From a virus, in the UHGV virus genome UHGV-0144531: a stretch of DNA of 33,245 nucleotides. One strand, 5' to 3'. Of the stretch, positions 1,633 through 18,325 are shown piece after piece (the stretch's first letter is position 1; each line of letters opens with the position of its first letter). The notes below the pieces were generated by a model. That model saw only the letters and a list, made by a program, of their open reading frames with translations, made no database searches and was not told the DNA's origin. Position numbers and translations under genes: made by a program.

Positions 1633-1755
1633 ATGGTTATTCAGGCGCTTCAATTCAAACTGGCAGTAGCGGAAATGCTTCACGATGCCGAAATGTGGAG
1701 CGCCGCGAATAAAGCCTTATACATAGTGTTAACAGCACGGGAGATTAAATGGTGA
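1633..1755 (+). CDS. Small hypothetical protein (40 aa)
   Basis: Strong RBS (ggaggtgacattATG); overlaps erf start by 7 nt; below ORF-track size cutoff. Confidence 0.3.
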   Translation: MVIQALQFKLAVAEMLHDAEMWSAANKALYIVLTAREIKW

Positions 1756-2393
1756 AAACAGAGTTACATAAAAAGCTATGGACGATTCAGCAAACGCTGA
1801 ACGCGCCGAAAAATCAGCGTAATAATTTTGGTGGATATAATTACAGGTCGGCGGAGGATATTTTAGAGGCGGTTAAACCACTGCTTCAAAGTATTACGCT
1901 GACTGTAAGCGATGAAATTGTCCTGATCGGCAATCGCTATTATGTGAAAGCTACGGCGACGCTAAGCGACGGTGAAGACGAAATAGCGGTAACGGCTTAC
2001 GCCAGGGAAGAAGAAAGCAAGAAGGGAATGGACGCAAGCCAGCTAACAGGTGCGACATCAAGTTACGCGCGAAAATATGCTTTGAACGGTTTATTCTGCA
2101 TTGATGATGCGCGAGATCCTGATACTGACGCATACGCTAAGCAGACAGGCCAGCAGCCTCGCCAGCAGAAAAACCCACCAAAACAACAACCACAGCAGCA
2201 GAAAGCGCCGCCAAATCCTGATGAAGTATTAGCACGTTTCTGTGATGCAGCAGCGAAAGCGCAGGACGCTAACAAGCTGCGTGAAATATTTGGCAAATGC
2301 TGGAAATTACTACCGGAAGGATCGGAACATCGAATCAAGGCAAAAGATGTTTATGACATCCGGGTAGCAGAGCTTAACGGGGAGATGGGTTAA
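1749..2393 (+). CDS. erf: Erf-family single-strand annealing protein (essential recombination function)
   Basis: N-terminal region (LNAPKNQ..FGGYNYRSAEDILEAVKPL..DEIVLIGNRYYVKATAT..GATSSYARKYALNGLF) closely matches P22 Erf as I recall it. Confidence 0.9.
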   Translation: MVKTELHKKLWTIQQTLNAPKNQRNNFGGYNYRSAEDILEAVKPLLQSITLTVSDEIVLIGNRYYVKATATLSDGEDEIAVTAYAREEESKKGMDASQLTGATSSYARKYALNGLFCIDDARDPDTDAYAKQTGQQPRQQKNPPKQQPQQQKAPPNPDEVLARFCDAAAKAQDANKLREIFGKCWKLLPEGSEHRIKAKDVYDIRVAELNGEMG

Positions 2394-4355: not shown

Positions 4356-4976
4356 ATGAACGACATCAAAACAGCTTACTCTCTCGGTAATGAAGGTATG
4401 TTGATCACTCGCTATACAGATGATGCAAACTTTCACGAAGTGGAAATTAAAGATTATCACGAAGTATTGAAAGATATGGAAGCTGGCGCGTATGACGCTG
4501 ATTTGAATCTGGCGCTACAGATTGTTGATATTGTGATGGGGGCGTCAATCCGCGATTACGTGTCTTTAAGTATGGAAGAAAAAACATCGGTAGCGCGTTA
4601 TGTATTCTCTCTTACTTTTGTGAAGCGCATGGAGGAAGAATTCGGACGCGTACCAGTGCCGGAAGAGGTTGATCCGCTCGCGTTCGGAAGTGCTGTTATT
4701 TTCCCGTTGAACAAGGATCAGCTTTGTAGTGTTTCACTGCATTCTATGCGCGGCCTGATGAAAAATATCTTTGAGGTTAAGATGTTGCAGAAATACATTG
4801 AGGAAGGCCACAAAGAGGAAGAAGTAAAATCGCTCATGCCATTGTTTTACGGTGAAATGGTTGGCAATGATATGCGTGCAAATGATTTCGGCGTACAGGC
4901 GGCTATCGCTGTGCTTAATGACGCACGGAAAAACGCACAGCCGACGCCTGAACAGGGAAAACGTGTACTGCATTAA
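4356..4976 (+). CDS. Hypothetical protein (206 aa)
   Basis: Largest unassigned early ORF; no family recognised from sequence alone. Confidence 0.6.
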   Translation: MNDIKTAYSLGNEGMLITRYTDDANFHEVEIKDYHEVLKDMEAGAYDADLNLALQIVDIVMGASIRDYVSLSMEEKTSVARYVFSLTFVKRMEEEFGRVPVPEEVDPLAFGSAVIFPLNKDQLCSVSLHSMRGLMKNIFEVKMLQKYIEEGHKEEEVKSLMPLFYGEMVGNDMRANDFGVQAAIAVLNDARKNAQPTPEQGKRVLH

Positions 4977-4988
4977 CCGAGTAATTCC

Positions 4989-5038
4989 GATCACATAAAT
5001 ATACATTTTGTATTGTAATTGCATATCCATTTTGTAAG
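4989..5038. promoter_or_regulatory. Recurrent motif cluster: GATCACATAAAT plus two direct copies of CATTTTGTA
   Basis: Intergenic; gatcacataaat at 4989-5000, acattttgtatt at 5003-5014, ccattttgtaag at 5027-5038. Confidence 0.45.
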
Positions 5039-5075
5039 CCGAAATCAAAAGGTTTACGGTGCGGAGGAAGCAAAA

Positions 5076-5294
5076 ATGGAACGCGAATTGATGCTTTATT
5101 GCGTAGAAGGTGGCGTAGGTCACGATGCCTACGTCGCTGGGAAAGGCTATCCAGCCGATGAAGTGCTTTCTAATATGCACTTCCGGGAAAATGAAATCAG
5201 GGTGTCTGTGTGGAAACGGTGCATTGATGGTATTGAGGTTGTAAGTATCGAACGGTATTTAGGCACGTTTGATTATGGTGTTATTGAGGCTTAA
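5076..5294 (+). CDS. Hypothetical protein (72 aa)
   Basis: ATG at 5076 with GGAGGA RBS; track start 5019 would run through the motif cluster. Confidence 0.5.
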   Translation: MERELMLYCVEGGVGHDAYVAGKGYPADEVLSNMHFRENEIRVSVWKRCIDGIEVVSIERYLGTFDYGVIEA

Positions 5295-6265: not shown

Positions 6266-6805
6266 ATGAAAAATGATTACGGCGGCAGCAACACGCCGAA
6301 AGAAATAAAAGACCTATGGCAGACGCCGAAACCTGTTTTTAGAGGAATGGATCTGGAATTCGAATTCGTCGCGGATGTGGCGGCAAACAAGGCAAACGCA
6401 TTAATACCGCGATATATAACCGAAGAAATGGACACGCTCCATTATCCGTGGGGAGCGGTGGCGATGCCTGGTGAGTATGTCTGGATGAATCCGCCATATT
6501 CTAATCCGGGGCCATTCGTTGATAAGGCGGCGCTTGAACATCAACGAAATCACATTGGCTGTGTAATGTTATTGCCCGCTGACATTTCTGTTAACTGGTT
6601 TATGAACGGCGTGGAGACGGCAAACGAATGCCGATTAATTACGCGCGGGCGGCTGGCTTTTATAAATGTCGCGACAGGGAAACCAGCAAGCGGAAACAAT
6701 AAAGGGAGCTTGTTCTTGATCTGGCATCCACGGTGCAGACATGAATGTATTTTCACGCAGATAACACGTAAAGAGCTATACGCGAGAGGCGCAAATAATG
6801 ACTAA
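6266..6805 (+). CDS. Phage Dam-type DNA N6-adenine methyltransferase
   Basis: N-terminal WQTPKPVF and catalytic NPPY motif (VWMNPPYSNPG) as in the phage Dam family; AGGGGG RBS. Confidence 0.75.
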   Translation: MKNDYGGSNTPKEIKDLWQTPKPVFRGMDLEFEFVADVAANKANALIPRYITEEMDTLHYPWGAVAMPGEYVWMNPPYSNPGPFVDKAALEHQRNHIGCVMLLPADISVNWFMNGVETANECRLITRGRLAFINVATGKPASGNNKGSLFLIWHPRCRHECIFTQITRKELYARGANND

Positions 6806-7298: not shown

Positions 7299-7782
7299 CA
7301 GGTTATTAGCCTGCGTTTATGTCGCCGTTTTCGTGATCATCAATCTTATTGTTAACCACTGTGGCCCGTGGGTAATTCCGATCACCACGGTATCCGCAGT
7401 GTGTGTCAATATGATGATCCGTGACTTCTTGTTATATGACGGCGGCCTGAAATGGTCGGCTACAACATGCGCCGCCGCTGGCGCAATTACGGTGCTGATA
7501 AACTATGATGCAGGAATGGTGGCGATCGCGTCATTCGTTGCGGTTGTTTCCGGTGCGCTTATTTCTGGCGGCGTTTACCGTGTTTTACCTGGTGATTTCG
7601 ATTCGAAACGCTGGCCTGCAAATATAGCTTCAGCTATCGGCGATGCGTTAATTTTTCCCACGCTATCGTTTATGGCATTTATGCCGGAAATATCAGCTAT
7701 TCAATTCATCTCAAAAATGGCAGCGGTAACGGTGATCACTATCATCATGCGCCGCTATTTTACGTTTGAGGGCAGAAAATGA
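7279..7782 (+). CDS. Integral membrane protein (multi-TM), function unknown
   Basis: Several hydrophobic helices; weak, unverified resemblance to YhhQ/DUF165-type transporters. Confidence 0.45.
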   Translation: MKRVTIDRLLACVYVAVFVIINLIVNHCGPWVIPITTVSAVCVNMMIRDFLLYDGGLKWSATTCAAAGAITVLINYDAGMVAIASFVAVVSGALISGGVYRVLPGDFDSKRWPANIASAIGDALIFPTLSFMAFMPEISAIQFISKMAAVTVITIIMRRYFTFEGRK

Positions 7783-8537
7783 GCGGGCTTAAAAATTGGG
7801 TGGTGTGGTCGTTGTACGACGGCAGCGGGTACGCCGTTAAAGATTGGGCTGACGCTGGCTATAAGTGTTATTGCTTCAACTATGACGGCGCTAACCACGG
7901 CGACTATGAAGGCGTAAAAATCATTCATCCGAATATTGAATACGTTAACGTATGGATTAACAGCCATTTCCTGGTGATGTTCTCCCCTGAATTGTCTGTT
8001 TATCCAGAGCCTGACATTATTCTGGCCTTCCCGCCATGCGACCATCTAGCCGTGTCCGGCGCTCGTTGGTTTACCAGCAAGCGTGAAAAAGATCCTGACT
8101 TCCAGGTGAAGGCGGCATATAACGCAAAACTGGTAGAAACGCTGGCTGACATGTATCACGTCCCGTGGATGGTGGAAAATCCGGTTGGCGCACTGTCAAC
8201 GTTATGGCGTAAGCCGGATTTTATCTTCAATCCGTGCGCTTACGGTGGATACCTGCCTGAAGATGATAAACATCCTGCTTTTCCTGATGTTTACCCGCCG
8301 CGCGACGCGTACACGAAGAAAACTTGTATCTGGTGCGGCAACGGATTTAAACAGCCGCTTTTTAGACCTGTAGATCTTAACTCTGATGATAACCCTGGCT
8401 GGGCGAAAACTGGAGGCCGGACGAAACGAACAAAGATGATCCGCTCGCTAACGCCGCGCGGCTTCGCCATCGCTGTATTCCTGGCTAACGACCGGGCAAT
8501 CACGCGGACTACGCTTAACCGCGTTTTACCGGAGTGA
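7779..8537 (+). CDS. Putative DNA (cytosine-5) methyltransferase
   Basis: Motif IV-like PPC (AFPPCDHLAVSG) and motif VI-like ENx (MVENPVG); 252 aa; GAGGG RBS. Confidence 0.55.
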   Translation: MSGLKNWVVWSLYDGSGYAVKDWADAGYKCYCFNYDGANHGDYEGVKIIHPNIEYVNVWINSHFLVMFSPELSVYPEPDIILAFPPCDHLAVSGARWFTSKREKDPDFQVKAAYNAKLVETLADMYHVPWMVENPVGALSTLWRKPDFIFNPCAYGGYLPEDDKHPAFPDVYPPRDAYTKKTCIWCGNGFKQPLFRPVDLNSDDNPGWAKTGGRTKRTKMIRSLTPRGFAIAVFLANDRAITRTTLNRVLPE

Positions 8538-8696: not shown

Positions 8697-8873
8697 ATGT
8701 CTTTTAATGATTACCAATGGCATGACGACTATGAACGAGAAAGCGTCATGCGTGCAATGTGCAATGTATGCAGCACGAAGAAAGGAGGCTGTAACGAGTG
8801 CGACGAATGCTTAGAACATTGGCTAAGGGCAGGGCACGCCGAAAGGCTGAACGAAACAGAGAATCAAAAATAA
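8697..8873 (+). CDS. Small Cys-rich protein (58 aa), putative zinc ribbon
   Basis: CxxC...CxxCxxC pattern (CNVCSTKKGGCNECDEC); strong RBS aaaaggagagagcattATG. Confidence 0.4.
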   Translation: MSFNDYQWHDDYERESVMRAMCNVCSTKKGGCNECDECLEHWLRAGHAERLNETENQK

Positions 8874-8887
8874 TAGGGGTGGTTTTT

Positions 8888-9493
8888 ATGCAGAACCCTA
8901 AAAAACCAATAAGACGCCGTTGCAAATGCTGCGGCGTTTTTTTTGAGCCTAAATATCACAACCAGACGTGGTGCAGTGACGAATGTCTGGAAGAGTTGAA
9001 ATTTGATCAGCTATGCCGCGACCGTGAGAAGGCTATGAAGGCTATGGAACGGAAGAAACGCCGTGATAGCCAGCGGGAAGAACGAAACCGGAAGCGGAAG
9101 CAGTTAAATCCGCGTAGCTACTGGATTAAACAGGCGCAAAACGTTTTTAACGCTTATATACGCGAGCGTGACGCGCGATTGCCGTGTATATCTTGCGGGA
9201 CTTACTACGGTGAGCAATGCGGGTGGGATGCGGGCCATTACAGGACGGTAGCCGCCGCCGGACACCTTCGCTTTAACGAGGATAATTGCCATAAACAATG
9301 CAGACACTGCAACCAGACATTAGACGGAAACATCGGAGGGTATCGCCCTGCGCTGATTCGAAAAATTGGCCTCGCAATGGTGGTTGCGCTGGAGAACAAC
9401 AACGATACACACAAATGGACGATCGCAGAATGTAAGGAGCTAATAAACATCTATCAGGCGAAATTGGACGCCTTAAGGAGAAAGGCAGCATGA
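8888..9493 (+). CDS. ninG: NinG/Rap-family recombination protein
   Basis: Conserved Cys/His clusters (CKCCG..W..C, CISCG, H...NCHKQCRHCN) as in lambda NinG; ATG 8888 with AGGGGTGG RBS. Confidence 0.8.
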   Translation: MQNPKKPIRRRCKCCGVFFEPKYHNQTWCSDECLEELKFDQLCRDREKAMKAMERKKRRDSQREERNRKRKQLNPRSYWIKQAQNVFNAYIRERDARLPCISCGTYYGEQCGWDAGHYRTVAAAGHLRFNEDNCHKQCRHCNQTLDGNIGGYRPALIRKIGLAMVVALENNNDTHKWTIAECKELINIYQAKLDALRRKAA

Positions 9494-9897
9494 ATGAATA
9501 TACCTTTAGCCTGCCTTACCCGCCATCGAATAACCGCTATTACCGACATTCACGGGGTTTTCACTATATCAGCGAAGTGGGGAAGGAATACCGGGAACAA
9601 GTAAAAGACATCATCGAATTATTAAATCTAGACATTAACCTGTCTTGCCGACTGGCAATCGCCATTTATGCCGCGCCGCCTGATAACCGGACCAGGGATC
9701 TTGATAATATCCCTAAATGCCTATTTGACAGCCTTACTTATGCCGGATTTTGGAAAGATGATGGACAAATTGACTCAATAAAAATTGTCCGCTGCCGGAA
9801 GGTAAAAGGCGGACGCTTGTTTATTAAGATCCGCGAACGCGGCGACCTACTACCGGATATTGACGAATACGCGACTAATATGTGGGGTGAGCAATGA
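9490..9897 (+). CDS. rusA: RusA-family Holliday junction resolvase
   Basis: LPYPPSNNRYY start, RTRDLDN and DDGQIDS acidic catalytic motifs. Confidence 0.85.
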   Translation: MNEYTFSLPYPPSNNRYYRHSRGFHYISEVGKEYREQVKDIIELLNLDINLSCRLAIAIYAAPPDNRTRDLDNIPKCLFDSLTYAGFWKDDGQIDSIKIVRCRKVKGGRLFIKIRERGDLLPDIDEYATNMWGEQ

Positions 9898-10076
9898 AAA
9901 ACGAAGTTAAAGATCTGCAAATAGATATTCAGCGCGATGAGCATGATTTAGCTACAGTCCGACAAATCCAGGCTTTTCACATGCGAGAATTACTTGCACT
10001 GAAAGAGTTTGAAAGAAAGCTAGTGCAATCAATATCTGATCGCAAAAGACTGGTTGCACGTTACGGGGGTAAATAA
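9894..10076 (+). CDS. Hypothetical protein (60 aa)
   Basis: ORF translationally coupled between rusA and Q. Confidence 0.45.
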   Translation: MKNEVKDLQIDIQRDEHDLATVRQIQAFHMRELLALKEFERKLVQSISDRKRLVARYGGK

Positions 10077-10798
10077 TGAATTTGGAATCTATTCTTAAAT
10101 TCCACCTCCCAAAATCACCGCGTTTGTCAGATGAAAGCCGGGGCACGTCCCCAGACTCGCTTAATACTACTGATGCACTAACCGCAGCAGGTATGGCGCA
10201 ATCGCGCGTAGAGCTTGGTTATAGCGCTTTTTTAGGGAAGATGGAATTATCGCAAGCCGAAAAACACAGGGCCGTAGTTTTGCTTACAGAGCGTTTAAGA
10301 GCTATGGCAAAAGATTACGAATACGTCATGGAGCTGGACGAGGACAAACGCAATGATCTTATTATTCTTGTTGCCGTTTTCGCGTTTCGGGATTACTGCC
10401 AGAGTGCCGCGACAGAAAAAACTTGTATGGATTGCGGCGGATATAAATTTACGTTTGACGACTACGGAGAAAAACACCTTTGCAAAAAATGCAAGGGGCA
10501 TGGAAAAGTTCGCAATCATTGTAAACGATGCAAAGGGCGCGGCGAGATACCGGATAAAGCAGCCAGTGAAGCAGCGGAAATGCCAGTGTTCAAAACGTGC
10601 CAGCATTGCGGCGGGCGCGGGTACTCGCGTTTCCCTGTAGATCTTGTCCGGCGTGCGGTTAATCAGCTTGTATTTCCGGTAAGCCGATCAACGTGGTGGA
10701 AGAAATACCGTGCTTTCTATGAAGACGCCATTGCTGAATTGTTCAAAGAAGAGGCGCAGGCTGATAACGAAATTAAACGAGTGACACGGGGTGAATAA
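10076..10798 (+). CDS. Q: Lambda-type late antiterminator Q
   Basis: N-terminus (LESILKFHLPKSPRLSD..AAGMAQS), zinc-finger cysteines and C-terminus (HKEE..ADNEI) align with lambda Q as I recall it. Confidence 0.9.
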   Translation: MNLESILKFHLPKSPRLSDESRGTSPDSLNTTDALTAAGMAQSRVELGYSAFLGKMELSQAEKHRAVVLLTERLRAMAKDYEYVMELDEDKRNDLIILVAVFAFRDYCQSAATEKTCMDCGGYKFTFDDYGEKHLCKKCKGHGKVRNHCKRCKGRGEIPDKAASEAAEMPVFKTCQHCGGRGYSRFPVDLVRRAVNQLVFPVSRSTWWKKYRAFYEDAIAELFKEEAQADNEIKRVTRGE

Positions 10799-10998
10799 TG
10801 AAACAACAAGAGATAAACATGAAAAAAGTGATTATTCTTTTTGAAGATTATAACGGTGATGCATGGTGCAAGTATTTAAGCGGTGTTGAAGCACGGTTGG
10901 CGCTAACGTTTATTGCCGCACTGGATGAAGGGGATTTTAACGCTATTCCGGTTAAGCCAGTAGAAATCTATCGTCGCGAGGTGAAGGATGAAGCCTAA
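10798..10998 (+). CDS. Hypothetical protein (66 aa)
   Basis: ORF; ATG overlaps the Q stop (TAATG). Confidence 0.45.
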   Translation: MKQQEINMKKVIILFEDYNGDAWCKYLSGVEARLALTFIAALDEGDFNAIPVKPVEIYRREVKDEA

Positions 10999-11257
10999 AT
11001 TAAAAGAACATCTATTCGCAAAGCTGGTTAATAATCTGACATTAACGGCGCGTGTGTGCAGTGATACGCAACAATTAGGGTCGTGGATAGTAAGGGATTT
11101 AAGAAAATACATCGAGCCAGGCGGGCCAGGTGACGAGATGACTATGGACAAGGCCATCAAGCGCCGTTCGGCTGATTGGTCAGTAAGTAACACAGGATTA
11201 ACCGGATACATCGAAGGCTACAACGACTGCTTACAGGATCATAGCGATGGCAAGTAA
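10988..11257 (+). CDS. Hypothetical protein (89 aa)
   Basis: ORF in co-directional string. Confidence 0.45.
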   Translation: MKPKLKEHLFAKLVNNLTLTARVCSDTQQLGSWIVRDLRKYIEPGGPGDEMTMDKAIKRRSADWSVSNTGLTGYIEGYNDCLQDHSDGK

Positions 11258-11555
11258 AGACCTACACTTGAACCTGAAAGGGGAATATTTCCACGCCATC
11301 CGGGCGGGAAAGAAGGTGGAGGAATACCGACTTTATAATGAATACTGGCGTAAACGCCTGGAGGGGCGGGAATATGAACGCCTGATCATTAAGCTGTGGT
11401 ATCCAGCCAGCCACGAAGCGCACCGGAACATAAACCTGCCTTATTTCGGGTACGAAGTAAAAACTATCACGCATCCATTATTCGGCCCTGATCCTGTTAA
11501 GGTATTCGCAATTAAATGTGATGTGAATTGGATGTTAAGGTGGGGGGAGCAATGA
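11247..11555 (+). CDS. Hypothetical protein, possibly ASCH/PUA-like
   Basis: N-terminal LHLNLKGEYFHAIRAGKKVEEYR resembles ASCH/DUF3850-type cores; from memory only. Confidence 0.4.
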   Translation: MASKDLHLNLKGEYFHAIRAGKKVEEYRLYNEYWRKRLEGREYERLIIKLWYPASHEAHRNINLPYFGYEVKTITHPLFGPDPVKVFAIKCDVNWMLRWGEQ

Positions 11556-11767
11556 AAAAAGCTGGCCTATCAATTAGCCGTGTATTGTGCGGTGACGAAA
11601 ACGAGATCCGCATAGAAATTAAATTTAGCACAGGTAAAGAGATAATCCTTTACACGACACCTGAAAACCTGACGCTGGCGCTTACTGGTAAATCTGAAAC
11701 GCCGTGCGACGTCCGGTTGCGCAATATTGAAATTAAGGAATTAAGGAAGGTGAAAGATGAAAAGTAG
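11552..11767 (+). CDS. Hypothetical protein (71 aa)
   Basis: ATG 11552 preceded by GGGGGGAG RBS; track start 11528 would overlap upstream gene. Confidence 0.4.
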   Translation: MKKAGLSISRVLCGDENEIRIEIKFSTGKEIILYTTPENLTLALTGKSETPCDVRLRNIEIKELRKVKDEK

Positions 11768-11957
11768 AATGAAACGCATGGTAAGAGCTTACGATAAGGC
11801 TTTAATGGTTTTTGATGATTTGCGACGCAATAAGCGTGAGCGTCGTAAATGGGCGCGTTTATTCGCGAAAGAATGGCACGAAGACGATGCGACAATCGAC
11901 TGTCAAAAAGACGCTGACGAATTAGCTGACGATAACGTTTATTATATGATGTGGTGA
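11757..11957 (+). CDS. Hypothetical protein (66 aa)
   Basis: ORF in co-directional string. Confidence 0.4.
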   Translation: MKSRMKRMVRAYDKALMVFDDLRRNKRERRKWARLFAKEWHEDDATIDCQKDADELADDNVYYMMW

Positions 11958-11961
11958 CAAC

Positions 11962-12327
11962 ATGCAAATAATCATTGATTACCTTTGCCATGCAGCAAAT
12001 ACACTTTTCGGTTTTTATCAACAACCTTTCCTTAAAGAGTGGGATTCGATGTTAAACGATATCCTCGACAAAGGATTAATAATGGAGGTTGACGAGCTTA
12101 CAATCAAAATTAATTATGAAGGTGAAGAATATCAAATTTGGGTGGGTAATAGATGGTATTCATACGGTCATATTTATTCAATTGGTGGTAAGTTCATTAA
12201 AAGAAACCAGGAATTCAGACCGCGCTTCCGCACAATGCGCCGACTACATAACCTGCATATGAATCTATTTGAAGACCAGGAAGCACGGGAACTATTCAAG
12301 ATCTACGGAGATAAATCATGGAGCTAA
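11962..12327 (+). CDS. Hypothetical protein (121 aa)
   Basis: ORF; AT-rich by eye. Confidence 0.45.
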   Translation: MQIIIDYLCHAANTLFGFYQQPFLKEWDSMLNDILDKGLIMEVDELTIKINYEGEEYQIWVGNRWYSYGHIYSIGGKFIKRNQEFRPRFRTMRRLHNLHMNLFEDQEARELFKIYGDKSWS

Positions 12328-12548
12328 AAATCTGGCAGGCTATCGACGTAGTTGATAATGAGTTAAGTATGTTTGCCACTGACGGAAAGCGCGCGGTGAT
12401 CGCCACATGGACGCGTAACCATGATGATATCGCTTTTCGTCGCAAGGCTGCGGAGTGGCTTTTCTCTGATGGCGGCTACACGATGAACATCGCCCAGCTT
12501 GCCAGAATGAAGGATGAAAAGCTGGTAGACAGCTACACAACTGCATAG
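12318..12548 (+). CDS. Hypothetical protein (76 aa)
   Basis: ORF in co-directional string. Confidence 0.45.
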   Translation: MELKIWQAIDVVDNELSMFATDGKRAVIATWTRNHDDIAFRRKAAEWLFSDGGYTMNIAQLARMKDEKLVDSYTTA

Positions 12549-12558
12549 CGGGGTAAAT

Positions 12559-12792
12559 ATGCGTATCTATGAACACAAGCGGGATAAAACCCGCTTTTTT
12601 GTTCGTGCTGGCGTGGCGTACCAGTATCACGAATGTGGATATATTGAGGCGCTTGCTTACGACCTGGATTTCGAACAAGAAAAAGAATGGTTTGACTTTA
12701 AGATTTACCGGAAGCGCAAGCCAACGCGCGACGAGCGCCACGCTATCCGTGATTTTCTAATCAGCATTGACCGCTGGGAGGCAGAAGAATGA
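12559..12792 (+). CDS. Hypothetical protein (77 aa)
   Basis: ORF in co-directional string. Confidence 0.45.
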   Translation: MRIYEHKRDKTRFFVRAGVAYQYHECGYIEALAYDLDFEQEKEWFDFKIYRKRKPTRDERHAIRDFLISIDRWEAEE

Positions 12793-13082
12793 GAACGAAG
12801 AAAGTGGCAGATCAGAAAGCGTTAGTTATCGCTACAACGGACGTATCGTTATTCACGAAGGGCGAAGAAATAGATCTTAAATTGCTTTTCGGTATGTTTG
12901 AGCCACACGAAAAGCCGTGGTTTGTTCATGAAGACAAACAAGGCAATATGCGCGTAGTAGTGCCGGACAAAAACAGCGACATATTTTTTGCTATTCCAGA
13001 CCCGTTGCATGACGGAGAAATGCTGGCGGTATTGCTTATCGCTGATGCTGTTACTTACAAGGGAAAGAAATATGAAAGTTAA
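12789..13082 (+). CDS. Hypothetical protein (97 aa)
   Basis: ORF in co-directional string. Confidence 0.45.
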   Translation: MRTKKVADQKALVIATTDVSLFTKGEEIDLKLLFGMFEPHEKPWFVHEDKQGNMRVVVPDKNSDIFFAIPDPLHDGEMLAVLLIADAVTYKGKKYES

Positions 13083-13552: not shown

Positions 13553-13766
13553 GGCAACTGGAAAGCGGATGGCGATCCTGGTTAACGAGGCAGGATATAT
13601 GTTTGTCCTGTACCCGTGGTGCATAGCTAGCCATAACGATTATTATCGCCGTCACGCTGCGCGGAGTGCGGTAGGGATGAAGGGTTGGCAACCTCGCGAC
13701 ATGGAAAACTATTGTGAATGGAAATTAGTGGCAAAATACACGGTCGATTATAAAGGGGTTTTCTGA
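13515..13766 (+). CDS. Hypothetical protein (83 aa)
   Basis: ORF in co-directional string. Confidence 0.4.
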   Translation: MKIKVSYFRAKDKATGKRMAILVNEAGYMFVLYPWCIASHNDYYRRHAARSAVGMKGWQPRDMENYCEWKLVAKYTVDYKGVF

Positions 13767-13978
13767 TGCAAGTTAAATGCTCATACTCAAGCAATGACAG
13801 TGTTTTCACGATTGGGAGTATTTATGACGTTCACATCGTTTATGGCAATGAAGCACACACAATGAGTAATTGCCTTGCCTTGATTGATAATCATGACGAA
13901 ATATGGGTATTCAGGCCGAGCTATGAAGGCGGTGAAATATCCGGTGTAGGTTTTGCTGCCAGCTTTGAACGTTATTAA
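13766..13978 (+). CDS. Small protein, paralog family member A (70 aa)
   Basis: Shares C.YS...F..G.IY.V and D..G..W.F motifs with the next three ORFs. Confidence 0.45.
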   Translation: MQVKCSYSSNDSVFTIGSIYDVHIVYGNEAHTMSNCLALIDNHDEIWVFRPSYEGGEISGVGFAASFERY

Positions 13979-13988
13979 AGGGGCAACA

Positions 13989-14246
13989 ATGAAACATTTA
14001 TATTTTGAGGTATTGCAGACGCGCGACCGCAATATTTTTGAAGAAGGGAAGATCTATTGCGGCGTTCAACTCCACGGCGCACCGGGCGGTGATGGTGCAA
14101 TGGCGATAACTGGCGATGATGATAAAGTTTATTTCGCTTATGTTAGCCATATCAATAACGCCGCTGGTTTGTATATTTATCGCATAGTGCATGATTTCCG
14201 TGAGATCGCGGAGTTTTGCGCCCGCGAAGGCAGTAAACCGGAATAA
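13989..14246 (+). CDS. Small protein, paralog family member B (85 aa)
   Basis: ATG 13989 with AAAGGGG RBS; FEEGKIYCGV and GDDDKVYFAY motifs. Confidence 0.45.
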   Translation: MKHLYFEVLQTRDRNIFEEGKIYCGVQLHGAPGGDGAMAITGDDDKVYFAYVSHINNAAGLYIYRIVHDFREIAEFCAREGSKPE

Positions 14247-14256
14247 GTGAGGTGCT

Positions 14257-14496
14257 ATGAATCGGAAACATAGATACCAGTGCACATACTCACGATGCAG
14301 CGCGTTTTTTAAGAATGGCAAGATCTACGAGGTTGACGCGGCATTGGTTGACGCAAAGGATCAGGAATATATTCATGCCATTACTGACGACCAGGGGCAG
14401 TTATGGCGATTTTATAAGATGGGTTGTGGCACGGCGCTTGTTTATGCGCGTGCTGGTGGTGGTGCTTTTGCTGCGTTTTCGTATGTAGGGGTATGA
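14257..14496 (+). CDS. Small protein, paralog family member C (79 aa)
   Basis: CTYSRCSAFFKNGKIYEVDA and TDDQGQLWRFY motifs. Confidence 0.45.
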   Translation: MNRKHRYQCTYSRCSAFFKNGKIYEVDAALVDAKDQEYIHAITDDQGQLWRFYKMGCGTALVYARAGGGAFAAFSYVGV

Positions 14497-14717
14497 AAAT
14501 GATTTTAACGTGTAACGAATCGAAATTGGGCTGTTTTGAGGAAGGCGTACAGTACACGGCTGAAAAACCGATGGGATTGTCTCCTAAATTTCCGTTTATC
14601 GTCGTGACTGACACTTACGGTCACTTATGGTATGCAGGGCCGCTAGGCGGTATTGGTCGTTATGTTGTCCGTAGTTCGGATGGGGCGATGAAGGTTACTT
14701 TTACGGAAGAAGCATAA
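14493..14717 (+). CDS. Small protein, paralog family member D (74 aa)
   Basis: ATG 14493 with AGGGG RBS; LTCNESKLGCFEEGVQYTAE and TDTYGHLWYAG motifs. Confidence 0.45.
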   Translation: MKMILTCNESKLGCFEEGVQYTAEKPMGLSPKFPFIVVTDTYGHLWYAGPLGGIGRYVVRSSDGAMKVTFTEEA

Positions 14718-15282: not shown

Positions 15283-15582
15283 ATGAAAAGCGCTAAATTT
15301 ATTGCTTGCTGTTTTGTTGAAGTTCCTAACGATGATGTTTTCTGTAATTATGAATTTAAAGACAGCTTAGGCAGATCTCACATTGTTGTTGGCAAACGTG
15401 GTGACTGGTTATATATCACTGATGGAGACAGGATCTTCACTAAAAACCAGTTGTTAATAATAAAGTCAAAAAATGATGAAATACAGGTCGGTATTATGGG
15501 GATCATAAGTTATCACGCCAGTTTATTGTTAAAACACGATGTGGTAAATAAAGCGCGTAGCTTACCTGGTGCTGAATTTTAA
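15283..15582 (+). CDS. Hypothetical protein (99 aa)
   Basis: ATG 15283 with AAGGGTG RBS; visibly AT-rich coding sequence. Confidence 0.45.
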   Translation: MKSAKFIACCFVEVPNDDVFCNYEFKDSLGRSHIVVGKRGDWLYITDGDRIFTKNQLLIIKSKNDEIQVGIMGIISYHASLLLKHDVVNKARSLPGAEF

Positions 15583-15605: not shown

Positions 15606-15929
15606 ATGTCTAAATTTATCAGTGTTAAAGTTTTCCGTGGATCTTTTCCAGAAGATAAAGAAATTGGACAATTCGCAGGTAAACGCGGCGCATGTTTCCG
15701 TGTGGCTACTGAAGACGACGCGCACGTTAAACGCTTCCACGTATCTGAACCGCCTTTTGACGCAGACCATCTTGAAGACCTGGATAGAATTAAAAGCCTA
15801 GTTTTTGCCTATCTGATGTTCCAGGGTATCGCTGATATGGAAGTGGAATTGCTTGGCGCTGAACTGGTTGCAGAATACAAAATGACTGAAGCAGAAAACA
15901 GAGGGGTTGAAATTGAGCGCATCAAATAA
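15606..15929 (+). CDS. Hypothetical acidic protein (107 aa)
   Basis: ORF with AAGGAG RBS; Asp/Glu-rich. Confidence 0.45.
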   Translation: MSKFISVKVFRGSFPEDKEIGQFAGKRGACFRVATEDDAHVKRFHVSEPPFDADHLEDLDRIKSLVFAYLMFQGIADMEVELLGAELVAEYKMTEAENRGVEIERIK

Positions 15930-16164
15930 GCTGTATAAAGTCAGATGTAAACGCGAATACCCTGGCTTTACGATTGGTTGCGAATATCTGGGCCATATTG
16001 GGTACGGCCCTTTCGGTGAGTTGGGAATGAATACGATTGACGACGACGGCGACAGCAGGACGCTCGATCTTGATACGGATGACTTCGAATATATCCCTCC
16101 AGTTACTTACCGTGCCGTAGATGATTTCCTGGCTGAACAAGAAGATGATGAAGAGGATGATTAA
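15907..16164 (+). CDS. Small protein with highly acidic C-terminal half (85 aa)
   Basis: C-terminal 45 residues roughly 40 percent Asp/Glu, ending DDFLAEQEDDEEDD. Confidence 0.45.
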   Translation: MKLSASNKLYKVRCKREYPGFTIGCEYLGHIGYGPFGELGMNTIDDDGDSRTLDLDTDDFEYIPPVTYRAVDDFLAEQEDDEEDD

Positions 16165-16166
16165 CT

Positions 16167-16307
16167 ATGGATGACGAATACGTTAACAATTTTATTGTTA
16201 TGTTTCTTAGTGAGAACTGGCGCATGTTTGAACATTATTGTTTTGAGCGCGGGGAAAATGCTGAAGAAATCTATCAATATTTAGGCGGGGAGAAAGAGGA
16301 TGATTGA
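16167..16307 (+). CDS. Small hypothetical protein (46 aa)
   Basis: ATG immediately after upstream stop; below ORF-track cutoff. Confidence 0.3.
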   Translation: MDDEYVNNFIVMFLSENWRMFEHYCFERGENAEEIYQYLGGEKEDD

Positions 16308-16500
16308 ATGTCTTATCTTTGCTGTATTTCTCCTTTATATCGCTGGCGCTATCCTGATGTCTTGTTTCATCAAATGTAACGATCTCGATCGTGGTGGCCT
16401 TGAGATTCCTTTCTGGCCTGTAGCGGTGTTTATCGCTTTCTTCGGTGCAACGCTAGTGCAGATTAAGCGAGCCATTAAGGAGCGTAAAAATGGGAAATAG
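16300..16500 (+). CDS. Small membrane protein (66 aa, 2 TM helices)
   Basis: Two hydrophobic segments (LIFAVFLLYIAGAILMSCFI; FWPVAVFIAFFGATLV) and basic C-terminus. Confidence 0.4.
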   Translation: MIECLIFAVFLLYIAGAILMSCFIKCNDLDRGGLEIPFWPVAVFIAFFGATLVQIKRAIKERKNGK

Positions 16501-16714
16501 CGACCATCAATATGACGGCGTTTATCAGTCATTGGTGTCACGCGCTTATTATCGCCTTGAAGGTGAACACGTAATGATGCGATCACGCCAGTTTGAACCG
16601 TGGCATGAAACGGTTTTACCTGTGACAGCGAAAGAAGTTATCACGATGTTTAATCACGGACATTGGAGCAAGATTGGCGATATTAAGTTCAGGATGTTTA
16701 AAGAGGGCGGTTAA
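16490..16714 (+). CDS. Hypothetical protein (74 aa)
   Basis: ORF in co-directional string. Confidence 0.4.
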   Translation: MGNSDHQYDGVYQSLVSRAYYRLEGEHVMMRSRQFEPWHETVLPVTAKEVITMFNHGHWSKIGDIKFRMFKEGG

Positions 16715-16897
16715 ATGATTGAAGATGGTATATACGCCGTGAACCTCATTGATGAAATGTTTTACCGCGTGGAGGGTAATGATATTCGTATCAGTATCGA
16801 TGGTGGCGAGTGGAAAGAGCCATTCATGGATATGACGCGGGAAATAATTGAAATCATGCTTTATAACGGCGACGTGGTGAAGGTTAGCGACCTGTGA
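16715..16897 (+). CDS. Hypothetical protein (60 aa)
   Basis: ORF in co-directional string. Confidence 0.4.
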   Translation: MIEDGIYAVNLIDEMFYRVEGNDIRISIDGGEWKEPFMDMTREIIEIMLYNGDVVKVSDL

Positions 16898-17070
16898 ACG
16901 AGATCGAAGACGGCATCTATTTGCATAAGGTATTTAACATCGTCTATTTACTTAAAGGTAATAAGGTGATGATAAGACCTGATGACGATCCACATTGGGA
17001 ATCAAGCGACATGGATCGGTGGCATATGCAAATGTTGTTTGATAATGGCCTGATATACAAAACTGCGTAA
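16894..17070 (+). CDS. Hypothetical protein (58 aa, GTG start)
   Basis: GTG overlapping upstream stop; shows the same EDGIY / RISIDGGEW-like pattern as 16715-16897. Confidence 0.25.
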   Translation: MNEIEDGIYLHKVFNIVYLLKGNKVMIRPDDDPHWESSDMDRWHMQMLFDNGLIYKTA

Positions 17071-17106: not shown

Positions 17107-17134
17107 ATTTCCTAACAATGCGAAATTGTAATTA

Positions 17135-17157
17135 CCCGGCCCCCGCGCCGGGTTTTT
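17135..17157 (+). terminator. Rho-independent terminator (tR'-like) upstream of the holin gene
   Basis: cccggc-ccccgc-gccggg hairpin followed by ttttt. Confidence 0.6.
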
Positions 17158-17177
17158 GCTTTGTTGGAGGTAAATCT

Positions 17178-17378
17178 ATGTTCGACAGAATACGGGAGGC
17201 GTGCGCGTATGTGACTGGGGCCGTAACTGCTTTTTTCGGCGCGATAACCATCAATGACATTGCCGTCTTTGTGGGTATCTTATCAACCGTAGGCACATTT
17301 GCCGTTAATTATTACTTCAAATCACAGGAGAACAAGCGGGCGCAAGAGGAACACGACGCGCGAATGGGGAATAAGTAA
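17178..17378 (+). CDS. Holin (class II / pinholin-like, 66 aa)
   Basis: ATG 17178 with GGAGG RBS; two hydrophobic helices and charged C-terminus (YYFKSQENKRAQEE) like phage 21-type S; directly precedes the endolysin. Confidence 0.7.
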   Translation: MFDRIREACAYVTGAVTAFFGAITINDIAVFVGILSTVGTFAVNYYFKSQENKRAQEEHDARMGNK

Positions 17379-17867
17379 ATGATTAGCCAATCGCTGAAAA
17401 ACAAGATTGTTGCGGCGGCTGGTGGGGCGATCGCTATTGCGGCGGTGATGATAAAAGATCTTGAAGGCGTTGAGTATAAGCCATACAGAGATGTCATCGG
17501 TGTTTACACGATATGTTATGGACACGTCGGAAAAGACATCATGCTTGGTAAGACTTACACGCAATCAGAATGCGATGCTTTATTAAATAAAGATCTACAC
17601 AAGACCGCAAAAGCGATTGACCCATATATCAAAGTCGAAATATCAGATTTTACCCGCGCAGCACTTTATTCATTCGCCTATAACGTAGGCGCTACCAACT
17701 TCAAAACATCAACCTTACTAAAACTACTCAATGACGGCAAGAAATCAGAAGCGTGCGCACAGCTTAAACGCTGGGTATACGCTGGCGGTAAGAAGTGGCA
17801 AGGCCTGGTAAACCGCCGCGAGGTTGAATATGCCGTTTGCGAATGGGGGGAAACGTGGACAAGGTGA
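17379..17867 (+). CDS. SAR endolysin (T4-lysozyme-like muramidase with N-terminal signal-anchor-release domain)
   Basis: N-terminal Gly/Ala-rich weak TM ([16 protein letters not shown]) followed by catalytic E..D..T triad ([21 protein letters not shown]), as in P21 R and P1 Lyz. Confidence 0.85.
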
Positions 17868-18325
17868 AGGCGTTAATTATCGCCGCTGTTGTTTGCATTA
17901 TTGCCGGACTGACCGCCGTAACATGTTATTACCAGGGTGAGGCGGCAAGGTTACAGGAAGAAGTCACGGTAACGAAAGGCGCACTGAAAACGGCAAGTAA
18001 CACTATTCAGCAGATGAAGGAGCGAAACGCCGAACTGTCAAAACTTGATAAGAGGTATCACGATGAGATTAAAGCTATCAGATCTGACATTGCCGATCTG
18101 CGCACTGGCATTGATAACGGCACTATCAGGCTGCGCGTCAACGCAATACCCGTGCGAGTGTCCGACTCCGCCGAATCCGCCAGCCGCATTGATGGAGCCT
18201 CCTGTAGACTCACTCCCGACGCTGAATCGGCTTATCTATCCCTCAGAGAACAACTAAAAACGAAAGACGCTCAGATTACTGGTCTTCAGGACTACATCAA
18301 AACTCAGTGCTTACGCAAAGAATAA
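17843..18325 (+). CDS. Rz-like i-spanin
   Basis: N-terminal TM helix ([17 protein letters not shown]) then coiled-coil periplasmic domain; embedded Rz1 in +1 frame; start uncertain (ATG 17843 or GTG 17855). Confidence 0.65.
18063..18257 (+). CDS. Rz1-like o-spanin (outer-membrane lipoprotein) embedded in Rz
   Basis: Signal peptide with lipobox (LITALSGC), proline-rich mature region ([17 protein letters not shown]); entirely inside Rz in another frame. Confidence 0.65.
   Translation: MRLKLSDLTLPICALALITALSGCASTQYPCECPTPPNPPAALMEPPVDSLPTLNRLIYPSENN

Follow-up and report, generated by a model that had tools for sequence, protein, structure and literature searches.

The open frame at 15907-16164 on the plus strand of the window (the whole 33,245-nucleotide stretch of virus genome UHGV-0144531) runs without interruption and is a real, protein-coding gene. 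It is an ordinary uncharacterised phage accessory gene, and its 83-aa product is predicted to form one compact domain, a five-stranded SH3-like barrel with a C-terminal acidic helix, followed by a disordered tail of about five residues. This part of the explanation, the gene and its compact domain, is strongly supported where it is not shown directly. Our best guess for the function, made with low confidence, is that this small protein acts as an electrostatic inhibitor of some basic protein that binds nucleic acid. Taken as a whole, the combination of accessory gene, one-domain acidic SH3-like fold and electrostatic-inhibitor mechanism falls somewhat short of an even chance in our estimation.

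Start codon, extent and conservation of the gene

The first-pass annotation had placed the start of the gene at 15907, but the related loci point to another codon. The codon matching 15907 is TTA, TCT or TCG, none of them a start, in several related loci, whereas the TTG at 15913, together with a Shine-Dalgarno sequence of the GGAGG/GGGGG type a few bases 5' of it, is kept in eight of the nine. In the window the corresponding motif falls within the 3' end of the upstream 107-aa gene (table 1). The length of 83 aa agrees with the PHROG 25234 profile, in which residues 3-85 of the 85-aa reading match positions 1-83 of 83 (E = 2.9e-55), and with RefSeq WP_319789780.1; RefSeq annotates the 83-aa form in a prophage copy that is 95.6% identical to the window gene.

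Selection acts along the entire reading frame. The dN/dS ratio is 0.17 over codons 7-78, and across nine loci it amounts to 0.135 for codons 7-38, 0.136 for codons 39-65 and 0.39 for the helix; because both halves show values of about 0.14, the full 83-aa product is considered to be under selection. The same figures bear on the reading in which the true product is a 45-aa peptide starting at the internal ATG at 16027 (MNTIDDDGD...) and the preceding 38 codons are non-coding. Forms of 43-46 aa are indeed annotated (mEp010_69, MagusPhagus CDS0069 and many E. coli GenBank and RefSeq records), and a GGTGAG motif lies 5' of this ATG. This reading is nevertheless already disfavoured and seems to us highly improbable: the low ratio for codons 7-38 is reached at a dS of 0.98, these codons are homologous to the N-terminal strands of proteins from T1-like phages and are required for the confidently predicted barrel, and both the TTG start and the Shine-Dalgarno sequence preceding it are kept in related loci. 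The 43-59-aa forms in four phage GenBank records are truncations of the 83-aa protein, which means in practice that the gene is mis-annotated, in shortened form, in these records.

Close homologues were found in 58 clusters, every one of them in E. coli prophages or phages, with 75-95% identity to the 83-aa protein. PHROG 25234 is a small family and its members are all annotated as 'hypothetical'; the mEpimmI and E. coli prophage proteins of the WP_319789780.1 type belong to the same family and share its synteny (107-aa gene, 83-aa gene, holin). More distant relatives of 52-65 aa, with 35-49% identity, are present in T1-like lytic phages of the Drexlerviridae (LL5 A0A2Z4Q2J7, bas08_0073, bas10_0065 and HCF1 gp11), where their genes lie near a polynucleotide kinase gene. 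They share the motifs YPGF...G.EY...DDDGD.R with the 83-aa protein but comprise the barrel only, without the PPVTY linker, the C-terminal helix and the longer tail, although the bas10_0065 branch also carries a short acidic tail. The residues that are invariant throughout the extended family (Y16, G18, F19, G22, Y25, G35, D43 and R49) are all located in the barrel. A literature search by locus tag and accession found no paper mentioning the T1-like homologues. Scans of the 83-aa protein and its neighbours against Pfam, NCBIfam and PADLOC gave no match, and the family profile matched no PDB sequence at E ≤ 10. An HMM search of 1.84 billion representatives returned only 16 matches and no annotated relative; several of the 16 are low-complexity acidic stretches in long proteins.

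Table 1. Features of the window that are related to the 83-aa gene and its surroundings
Feature	Position	Strand	Remarks
Q-like antiterminator	10076..10798	+	PHROG 127, E = 7.6e-79; upstream array boundary
Probable distant paralogue, 70 aa	13766..13978	+	hhalign P = 4.3e-5 against the 83-aa family
Array paralogue of the 70-aa gene, 79 aa	14257..14496	+	jackhmmer link; weak hhalign P = 0.007 to the 83-aa family
Possible array paralogue, 74 aa	14493..14717	+	weak: HMM E = 0.003 with fusions, hhalign P = 0.0065
107-aa gene	15606..15929	+	PHROG 23107; overlaps start of 83-aa gene by 17 nt
Shine-Dalgarno-like AGAGGGG	15900..15906	+	ends 6 nt before TTG 15913; abuts TTG at 15907
83-aa acidic protein, CDS	15913..16164	+	TTG start, stop TAA 16162-16164; PHROG 25234, dN/dS, RefSeq
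SH3-like beta-barrel, predicted	15931..16095	+	residues 7-61
DDDGD hairpin, strands 3/4	16039..16053	+	residues 43-47; alignments, junction mapping
C-terminal helix YRAVDDFLAEQED, predicted	16108..16146	+	residues 66-78
Poly-Asp/Glu tail DEEDD	16147..16161	+	residues 79-83; low confidence, last block mean pLDDT 52
Intrinsic-terminator-like hairpin and T-run, strong	17134..17160	+	between array and holin gene

Predicted fold and charge

AlphaFold2 models the 83-aa protein as a single domain with a pLDDT of 88. In the predicted model five antiparallel strands (residues 7-12, 24-31, 37-42, 48-51 and 58-61) form a small barrel superposable on SH3 domains, and the barrel carries conserved loops rich in Tyr, Phe and Gly (YPGF at 16-19 and GYGPFG at 30-35). 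Across the extended family no motif is conserved more widely than the DDDGD hairpin. The predicted helix has an acidic face that is conserved, and its residues D70, F72 and E75 do not vary within the long family; in the tail the composition is conserved across the family, and length and sequence vary. Three likenesses seen by eye were dropped. The C-terminal tip of SSB is DFDDDIPF, and the similar DLDTDDFEYIPP is internal and forms strand 5; the consensus of the beta-clamp-binding motif is unmatched; and DDDGD has the wrong register for a DxDxDG calcium loop.

The initial description from the letters alone, that the last 45 residues are about 40% Asp/Glu and that the protein ends in DDFLAEQEDDEEDD, agrees with our counts: there are 19 Asp/Glu (42%) and two Lys/Arg in these 45 residues, and three Asp/Glu and five Lys/Arg in the first 38. 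This acidic half is real as a matter of composition; however, it is neither a separate nor a disordered region, since it consists of strands 4-5, two loops and the helix of one predicted domain. The acidic residues are placed in the hairpin between strands 3 and 4 (DDDGD), in the loop between strands 4 and 5 (DLDTDD), in the helix and in the tail. Overall the protein has a net charge of -15, a pI of 4.05 and an Asp/Glu content of 26.5%, and its Asp/Glu residues are more clustered than a random spread of the same residues would give (hypergeometric P = 3.3e-4). No other of the 74 crude ORF calls in the window reaches 19 Asp/Glu in any 45-residue stretch, and only one is more negative per residue.

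On the one hand, acidity is common in this neighbourhood. The downstream 46-aa ORF (16167-16307) exceeds the 83-aa protein in acidity per residue and several tiny ORFs nearby are similarly acidic, so that a negative charge may be typical of small phage proteins in general; the upstream 107-aa neighbour, which had also been called acidic, is so only mildly (net charge -6, pI 5.06). On the other hand, the net charge of 38 full-length family representatives ranges from -10 to -18, with a median of -15, and their C-terminal ends, of about two dozen different kinds, are all rich in Asp/Glu. Members of the bas10_0065-type sub-branch independently end in EVDDED-like tails. Together with the invariant D70 and E75 of the helix, this points to selection on the acidity of the family.

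Genomic setting, neighbouring genes and natural fusions

By its sequence the window belongs to the mEp021-like (mEpimmI) temperate coliphages, and the DNA of the region is 84-90% identical to that of mEp044, mEp010, mEp554, mEp021 and relatives. It has a CI-like repressor gene at 164-811. The group has been described previously, with a reported prevalence in human gut samples equal to that of lambdoid phages (PMC11893012). The 83-aa gene is located in a dense array of tiny genes that extends from the Q-like antiterminator to the lysis cassette and its holin. PF03589 was detected on the gene equivalent to this antiterminator in loci L005 and L015-L017. Just 5' of the lysis genes, terminators are also annotated in mEp044 (T8) and mEp010 (T9). 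A promoter scan gave fewer sites than shuffled controls and did not locate the late promoter; for the 83-aa gene, transcription could be late, or delayed-early through readthrough under the N-like Gp17 antiterminator. Neither the Rfam scan nor the tRNA scan detected anything in the window. The 83-aa gene is an accessory ('flexible') one: mEp044, mEp010 and mEp554 carry it, and the laboratory phages mEp021, mEp515 and mEp013 lack it and can do without it.

The upstream 107-aa gene and the 83-aa gene are probably translationally coupled; their adjacency and overlap recur in loci L010-L013 and L014. The 107-aa protein is predicted to adopt an alpha+beta fold, for which no informative structural match was obtained, and a profile comparison of this protein with the 83-aa family found no similarity.

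Related prophages contain in-frame fusions in which the C-terminal half of the 83-aa protein is attached to the N-terminal halves of other array genes, and in the two verified cases the parts are joined exactly at the DDDGD hairpin. The N-terminal halves are 90-93% identical to members of the family of the 70-aa gene, whose relatives supply this part of the natural fusions. The paralogy of the 83-aa gene with the 70-, 79- and 74-aa array genes (table 1) is moderately supported by profile comparison: the HMM match of the 70-aa gene has an E value of 3e-6 when the fusions are included in the profile and 0.09 when they are left out, and with the fusion-free profile none of the three links is significant. 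Paralogy with the genes at 12789-13082, 13989-14246 and 15283-15582 is unsupported by hhalign. These natural half-barrel fusions illustrate how new ORFs arise by deletion from paralogous mini-genes. It could even be imagined, although we give the idea little credence, that the array from Q to holin is a recombining repertoire of SH3-like mini-barrels, where a near-invariant acidic C-terminal module serves as a shared 'warhead', directed at a basic protein of the host or its defences that binds nucleic acid, and is repeatedly rejoined to divergent N-terminal half-barrels that set the specificity; the fusions would then be functional new inhibitors and not tolerated deletion scars.

Proposed function and alternative explanations

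The mechanism that we propose is that the 83-aa protein acts as a small stoichiometric protein-protein inhibitor. The aromatic and Gly-rich loops of the barrel would provide specificity, and the acidic helix and tail would provide electrostatic attraction to the basic surface of a protein that probably binds nucleic acid. The target may belong to the host, perhaps to its defences, or to the phage itself, and the inhibitor would work as a 'decoy' in the manner of CarS and TifA instead of imitating a stretch of B-DNA as Ocr and ArdA do. On its own, this whole mechanism is more doubtful than the explanation outlined at the beginning, and we advance it tentatively. The fold alone says little, because SH3-like barrels bind very diverse ligands. 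The gene's place after Q and beside the lysis genes speaks against a function that is needed as the DNA enters the cell. Should the protein indeed neutralise a nucleic-acid-binding or defence protein of the host, an SH3-like scaffold from temperate phages of Gram-negative bacteria would join the short list of small acidic inhibitors such as CarS and TifA, and the large array of tiny genes that separates Q from the lysis genes, so far unexplored, would become accessible to study.

Since the barrel-only relatives lack the helix, the conserved function may reside in the barrel and be unrelated to the acidic C-terminus. The functional unit would then be the barrel alone, binding a peptide, a protein or nucleic acid, with the helix and tail as an appendage for solubility, an 'entropic bristle', or as an autoinhibitory lid that has no target of its own. 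The T1-like homologues, the location of the invariant residues of the extended family, the faster evolution of the helix (0.39 versus 0.14) and the unconstrained sequence and length of the tail are all in keeping with this. However, three helix residues are invariant in the long family, the natural fusions always retain the C-terminal module nearly unchanged, and acidic tails arise independently in the bas10_0065 sub-branch; we consider the barrel-alone explanation unlikely, if a serious competitor. A different, phage-internal role, for example in late development or the timing of lysis and not in host takeover or anti-defence, can be envisaged for a two-protein module made of the 83-aa protein and the co-translated 107-aa protein. 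All full-length loci examined show the adjacency and the 17-nt overlap unchanged, the pair is directly upstream of the lysis cassette, and a natural in-frame fusion of both genes (P0050) is present on 14 contigs. Yet the 107-aa family is far commoner (203 versus 58 clusters) and often occurs without the 83-aa gene, the fusions P0055, P0057 and P0234 occur in prophages whose array has no called 107-aa gene and where the slot before the fusion is taken by an 83-aa gene, and three laboratory phages of the group dispense with the 83-aa gene altogether. We consider a module of this kind improbable.

The first-pass annotation had offered another explanation from charge, namely that the protein is a DNA mimic of the Ocr/ArdA type, in which a DNA-like array of carboxylates would block type I restriction-modification or BREX. 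The Asp/Glu content, pI and net charge given above do fall among the values given for DNA mimics (pI 3.8-5.5; PMC2926617), and the acidity is conserved. Charge is nevertheless the sole feature in favour of the idea, and since tiny ORFs nearby share a comparable acidity, this property does not discriminate here. Ocr, a dimer, is elongated and all-helical, with carboxylates that follow the course of bent B-DNA, and ArdA is likewise elongated, with several domains and roughly 165 aa, whereas the 83-aa protein is predicted to be a globular all-beta barrel with one helix, in a single domain, and barrel and helix alone would be too small for the DNA groove of a type I enzyme. The statement that similarity to Ocr and ArdA is undetectable held up in our searches: there was no match at E ≤ 1 in Pfam-A, which presumably includes models of both, and none in the PDB search described above. 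Ocr (T7 gp0.3) and ArdA resemble the 83-aa protein only in strong net negative charge and small size, and differ in sequence, predicted fold class, genomic position and perhaps in expression timing; the 83-aa gene follows Q and neighbours the lysis genes instead of standing at the early, leading end of the genome. Moreover, the barrel-only T1-like relatives have no acidic helix, the phage possesses two DNA methyltransferases of its own (6266-6805 and 7779-8537) as an alternative route past restriction, and the gene is absent from three phages of the group. Acidic proteins with an SH3-like fold that block proteins binding DNA do exist, CarS1 and TifA among them. We regard DNA mimicry of this type as quite improbable and retain the electrostatic inhibitor as the preferred, if tentative, reading.

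Relation to known acidic and SH3-like proteins

The closest analogies that we see for the 83-aa protein are CarS, TifA and Gp54(Bas11). The antirepressor CarS1 of Myxococcus xanthus is an SH3-like protein of 86 aa with a pI of 4.1 that mimics operator DNA (PMC2926617). It is close to the 83-aa protein in size (86 versus 83 aa) and pI (4.1 versus 4.05), and its monomeric five-stranded SH3-like topology with many surface Asp/Glu residues is paralleled by our predicted model, which likewise combines an SH3-like topology with a pI of about 4. By analogy, CarS would be the best mechanistic example of how an acidic SH3-like protein can act as a decoy for a surface that binds DNA; it differs in being a bacterial protein of a light-response circuit and in having no C-terminal helix. 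The profile search of PDB chains, a set that we expect to include the CarS1 NMR structure, found no sequence homology to CarS at E ≤ 10.

TifA (Orf65) of Enterococcus phage phi47 is acidic (21% Asp/Glu), has an SH3-like N-terminal domain and inhibits type IV restriction enzymes by binding directly to the nuclease; its authors refrained from describing it as a true DNA mimic (PMC11322646). Compared by its published description, it resembles the 83-aa protein in being small, acidic, phage-encoded and equipped with an SH3-like domain, but it is built of two globular domains, and its phage infects a Gram-positive host. A TifA-like function of the 83-aa protein would be pure analogy.

Gp54 of phage Bas11 (PF25180; PDB 9AXB) triggers the CapRel(SJ46) defence (PMC11578894). 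It is a six-stranded barrel without helix or acidic tail, whereas five strands are predicted for the 83-aa protein. Membership in the Gp54(Bas11) family was rejected, as the 83-aa protein has no Pfam match at E ≤ 1; the positive control, the Bas10 homologue bas10_0057, matches PF25180 at 1.1e-34.

An acidic SH3-like barrel protein and its start

The gene at 15913-16164 (+) very probably encodes a real 83-aa accessory protein, a single barrel of the SH3-like type that carries an acidic helix and an acidic tail, which belongs to an uncharacterised phage family and lies in a recombining array of tiny genes. It is a new, uncharacterised addition to a growing class of small acidic barrel proteins of phage accessory regions; its family has already been catalogued, as hypothetical.

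The first-pass annotation had placed the ORF at 15907-16164. This ORF exists and its product ends in DDFLAEQEDDEEDD, but the start has to be moved to the TTG at 15913. TTG 15907 directly adjoins a Shine-Dalgarno-like AGAGGGG, and TTG 15913 lies 6 nt past this motif. The equivalent of TTG 15913, with an upstream motif of the GGAGG/GGGGG type, is kept in eight of nine related loci, in three of which the codon equivalent to 15907 is TTA, TCT or TCG. Considering this conservation, the length of the PHROG profile (83 positions) and the 83-aa TTG form annotated in RefSeq for a prophage copy with 95.6% identity, the gene was placed at 15913-16164.

Truncated forms of 43-59 aa, starting at internal codons, are annotated in four phage GenBank records, and 45-46-aa 'MNTIDDDGD...' proteins are present in many E. 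coli records; the 45-aa short form coincides exactly with the C-terminal 45 residues that had been singled out for their acidity. Pairwise Nei-Gojobori comparison of nine loci gave a dN/dS of 0.135 (dS 0.98) for codons 7-38, 0.136 for codons 39-65 and 0.39 for the helix. Judged by conservation and dN/dS, the real product in those four records is the 82-85-aa TTG-initiated form. It is very improbable that the short 45-aa form is the true product: codons 7-38 are constrained, the relatives in T1-like phages have homologous N-termini, and the predicted fold needs the N-terminal part. On the minus strand, ORF 15922-16140 overlaps the gene; the same dN/dS analysis ruled it out as the frame under constraint.

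Charge and predicted structure

The C-terminal 45 residues, earlier put at about 40% Asp/Glu, indeed hold 19 (42%) and two Lys/Arg, with only three Asp/Glu among the first 38 residues; for a protein of this composition, such a C-terminal concentration has a hypergeometric P of 3.3e-4. The whole protein has a net charge of -15 and a pI of 4.05, and none of the other ORFs among 74 crude calls in the window has at least 19 Asp/Glu in any stretch of 45 residues. The acidity is conserved across 38 full-length cluster representatives (net charge -10 to -18, median -15). The 107-aa upstream neighbour (15606-15929), also described as acidic, is so only mildly (net -6, pI 5.06). Acidity is frequent in adjacent mini-ORFs, such as 16715-16897 (net -9 in 60 aa). 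A 46-aa ORF at 16167-16307 (PHROG 15754), which begins 3 nt past the stop of the 83-aa gene and ends in EKEDD, contains 13 Asp/Glu and three Lys/Arg (net -10) and, at -0.22 per residue, exceeds the 83-aa protein in acidity per residue.

The AlphaFold2 model, built from a 39-sequence alignment, has a mean pLDDT of 87.9 and a pTM of 0.74, with 10-residue block means of 91-95 over residues 11-70 and a low-confidence C-terminal end (last block mean 52). Strands are predicted at 7-12, 24-31, 37-42, 48-51 and 58-61, and a helix at 66-78. In this model, the 'extremely acidic C-terminal half' of the first-pass annotation is therefore not a separate low-complexity domain. The model places Asp/Glu in the hairpin between strands 3 and 4 (D43-D47, DDDGD), in the loop between strands 4 and 5 (DLDTDD), on one helix face (D70, D71, E75, E77 and D78, with D70 and E75 invariant) and in a floppy tail of about five residues. 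The composition of the tail is kept while its length and sequence vary, giving about two dozen C-terminal endings among 38 representatives. The conserved aromatic loops of the barrel fall in the region through which SH3 domains usually bind their ligands (a region summarised in PMC2926617).

Family and distribution

A word-indexed search detected 58 homologues, all from E. coli/Shigella prophages or phage contigs and none of them named, and when 1.84 billion representatives were searched exhaustively with a profile, only 16 matched at E<=1e-3; a broader profile collected 115 clusters, all of 37-96 aa and all hypothetical. Megablast located the gene in only five of 5,426 complete E. coli genomes. 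The surrounding DNA is 84-90% identical to Escherichia phages mEp044, mEp010, mEp554, mEp515, mEp021, mEp013 and MagusPhagus; these phages belong to 'mEpimmI', a group of temperate coliphages that are Nus-dependent and non-lambdoid (PMC11893012). By tblastn the gene is present in mEp044, mEp010, mEp554 and MagusPhagus and was not found in mEp021, mEp515 and mEp013. It is dispensable for the mEpimmI group.

Two architectures are seen. Prophages of the mEpimmI type carry the long one, 82-86 aa with barrel, helix and tail. Proteins of 52-65 aa that consist of the barrel alone are encoded on ~50-kb contigs and by named T1-like Drexlerviridae such as LL5, HCF1, DanielBernoulli/Bas08 and IsaakIselin/Bas10, near the polynucleotide kinase gene. 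The bas10_0065 sub-branch has, independently, a short acidic tail (EVDDED, EVDEDEDH, EVDSEECEDD).

Fusion genes within the array

Among the concrete results of this analysis, the half-barrel fusions and the systematic mis-annotation of the gene are of most use, and the mosaicism revealed by the fusions is the most interesting side result. Several database proteins join the C-terminal module of the acidic protein (...DGDSRTLDLDSDDFEYIPPVTYR.VDDFLAEQED..., from about residue 43 onwards) to unrelated N-terminal halves; in P0055 and P0057 the module is 83-88% identical to the window protein. Mapping traced the N-terminal halves to donors that are themselves array members: over its first 44 residues, P0057 shares 93% identity with a 71-aa array gene (MFARCVYSDT...KDNDGD/AWQFYG), P0055 shows 90% identity to a related one (...KDDHGD/AWRYW) and P0234 95% to a 94-aa one, and an 85-aa array gene matches the first 30 residues of P0042. 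In P0050, found on 14 contigs, the C-terminal module is preceded by the N-terminal ~35 residues encoded by the 107-aa neighbour, and this fusion stands in for both genes in its prophage. P0045 and P0047 are converse fusions, in which residues 1-38 of the acidic protein come first; by eye, what follows resembles the C-terminal parts of downstream genes equivalent to 16894-17070 and 16490-16714. At the P0055, P0057 and P0234 loci an 83-aa gene lies immediately 5' of the fusion and no 107-aa gene was called in the array. Given these positions and the array-gene donors, the fusions are in-frame deletions between array genes, and they are tolerated or useful, because several occur on multiple contigs.

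The two halves of P0055 and of P0057 meet precisely at D-x-[D/H]-G-D, a hairpin motif common to the donors and the family of the acidic protein. In hhalign comparisons of this family, P was 4e-5 for the family of 13766-13978 and about 0.007 for those of 14257 and 14493; HMM matches to donor families were significant only with the fusions in the profile. Jackhmmer linked 13766-13978 and 14257-14496 as paralogues. The 70-80-aa genes of 13766-14717 have a common pattern, x-C-x6-8-F-x2-G-x2-Y ... D-x-x-G-x-x-W, and resemble divergent copies of a single mini-barrel fold, distant kin of the acidic protein. The junctions and the weaker hhalign/HMM evidence together make it likely, if unproven, that this fold is represented in the array by several paralogues that have diverged greatly.

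Possible function

What could such a protein do? Our tentative reading, by analogy, is a stoichiometric inhibitor or decoy of the CarS/TifA kind. Its target would be a basic surface, probably one that binds nucleic acid, on a host or phage protein; the conserved aromatic loops would recognise this surface, and the acidic helix and tail would steer the protein towards it electrostatically. Acidic SH3-like inhibitors of DNA-binding proteins are known. CarS1 (86 aa, pI 4.1) has a monomeric five-stranded SH3-like fold and is an operator-DNA mimic according to its authors (PMC2926617); TifA of Enterococcus phage phi47, 21% acidic and with an SH3-like N-terminal domain, inhibits type IV restriction enzymes directly, and its authors avoid the term 'DNA mimic' (PMC11322646). 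Both are analogies to the 83-aa protein, not homologies.

Somewhat less probable is that function resides in the barrel alone, with an accessory acidic end. A two-protein module with the 107-aa neighbour, in a phage-internal role, is rather unlikely. The charge had prompted the proposal of an Ocr/ArdA-type DNA mimic, offered with the remark that similarity to those proteins was undetectable; the remark is borne out by the lack of signal in Pfam (E<=1) and PDB sequences (E<=10). The analysis neither supports nor refutes the proposal itself. Ocr and ArdA differ in fold class from the predicted barrel, whose gene lacks their leading early genomic position, and membership was rejected on sequence, predicted fold class and position. 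Ocr-like imitation of extended B-DNA is unlikely for a ~9-kDa barrel unless it is oligomeric, and a true Ocr-like mimic acting against type I or BREX systems is improbable. Self-methylation by the two phage methyltransferases is a plausible alternative way past host restriction. The probability left after the decoy and its four rivals, the 45-aa form included, goes to something else.

Genomic context and transcription

The gene order of the window was derived from PHROG scans (table); Rfam families and tRNAs were found nowhere in it. Array-type genes belong to a 'flexible' class left uncharacterised in PMC11893012.

Features of the window, fusion genes and truncated database entries (fusion coordinates are those of the related loci)
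Feature	Position	Strand	Remarks
CI-like repressor	164-811	+	PHROG
Erf-like annealing protein	1749-2393	+	PHROG
DNA methyltransferases, two	6266-6805, 7779-8537	+	PHROG; upstream of NinG, RusA, Q
NinG/Rap	8798-9493	+	PHROG
RusA	9490-9897	+	PHROG
Q-like antiterminator	10076-10798	+	PHROG
Tiny-ORF array, ~6 kb	after Q-like antiterminator	+	contains the 83-aa gene
Genes with common pattern	13766-13978, 14257-14496, 14493-14717		related genes in L001, L007-L013
Holin, endolysin, Rz-like genes	~17178-18325	+	PHROG; terminase and head genes next
Fusion P0050	L005/L006 4001-4228		
Fusion P0057	L015 3001-3237		
Fusion P0055	L016 3001-3231		
Fusion P0234	L017 3001-3255		
Further fusions			P0042, P0045, P0047, P0061, P0236
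Truncated entry mEp044_64	PP180004.1		L001; internal start
Truncated entry mEp010_69	PP180001.1		L007; internal start
Truncated entry mEp554_64	PP180005.1		L009; internal start
Truncated entry CDS0069	PP925836.1		L008; internal start

About 2 kb (10800-12790), without counterpart in L005 and L016/L017, separate the Q-like gene of the window from its mini-gene array; in those loci the array begins at the Q stop codon. This segment contains minus-strand ORFs at 10903-11211, 11650-12024 and 12340-12741 (102-133 aa), which have no PHROG match, and a terminator-like hairpin at 12577-12596 (+); it may be an inserted moron cassette.

In every full-length locus examined, the 107-aa gene (PHROG 23107) precedes the 83-aa gene with an identical 17-nt overlap, an arrangement that suggests translational coupling; downstream, a small number of variable mini-genes lead up to the holin gene. 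A strong terminator-like hairpin (17134-17160) separates array and holin, and the mEp044 and mEp010 annotations place terminators shortly before the lysis genes. Within the first codons of the listed 86-aa 'holin' ORF (17118-17378, ATG 17118) lies the hairpin, ACCCGGCCCCCGCGCCGGGT followed by a T-run, and ATG 17178 has a GGAGG motif ahead of it; 17178 is therefore the probable start of the holin, giving the 66 aa seen in related loci. The hairpin would then be an intergenic terminator, comparable to lambda tR'. The N-like antiterminator Gp17 modifies RNA polymerase, with nutR2 upstream (PMC11893012), and the array is possibly delayed-early, read by Gp17-modified polymerase from nutR2; an alternative possible scheme is that it is read only after Q acts. 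A promoter scan, with fewer sites than in shuffled controls, favoured neither.

Directly upstream of the lysis cassette, 16490-16714, 16715-16897 and 16894-17070 all match PHROG 15318 (E = 2e-5, 6e-33 and 7e-30, respectively), so that 16490-17070 is a tandem triplication of another uncharacterised mini-protein. In one related prophage, L016, an HNH_3 (PF13392) endonuclease gene (4564-5085) lies between the endolysin and spanin genes.
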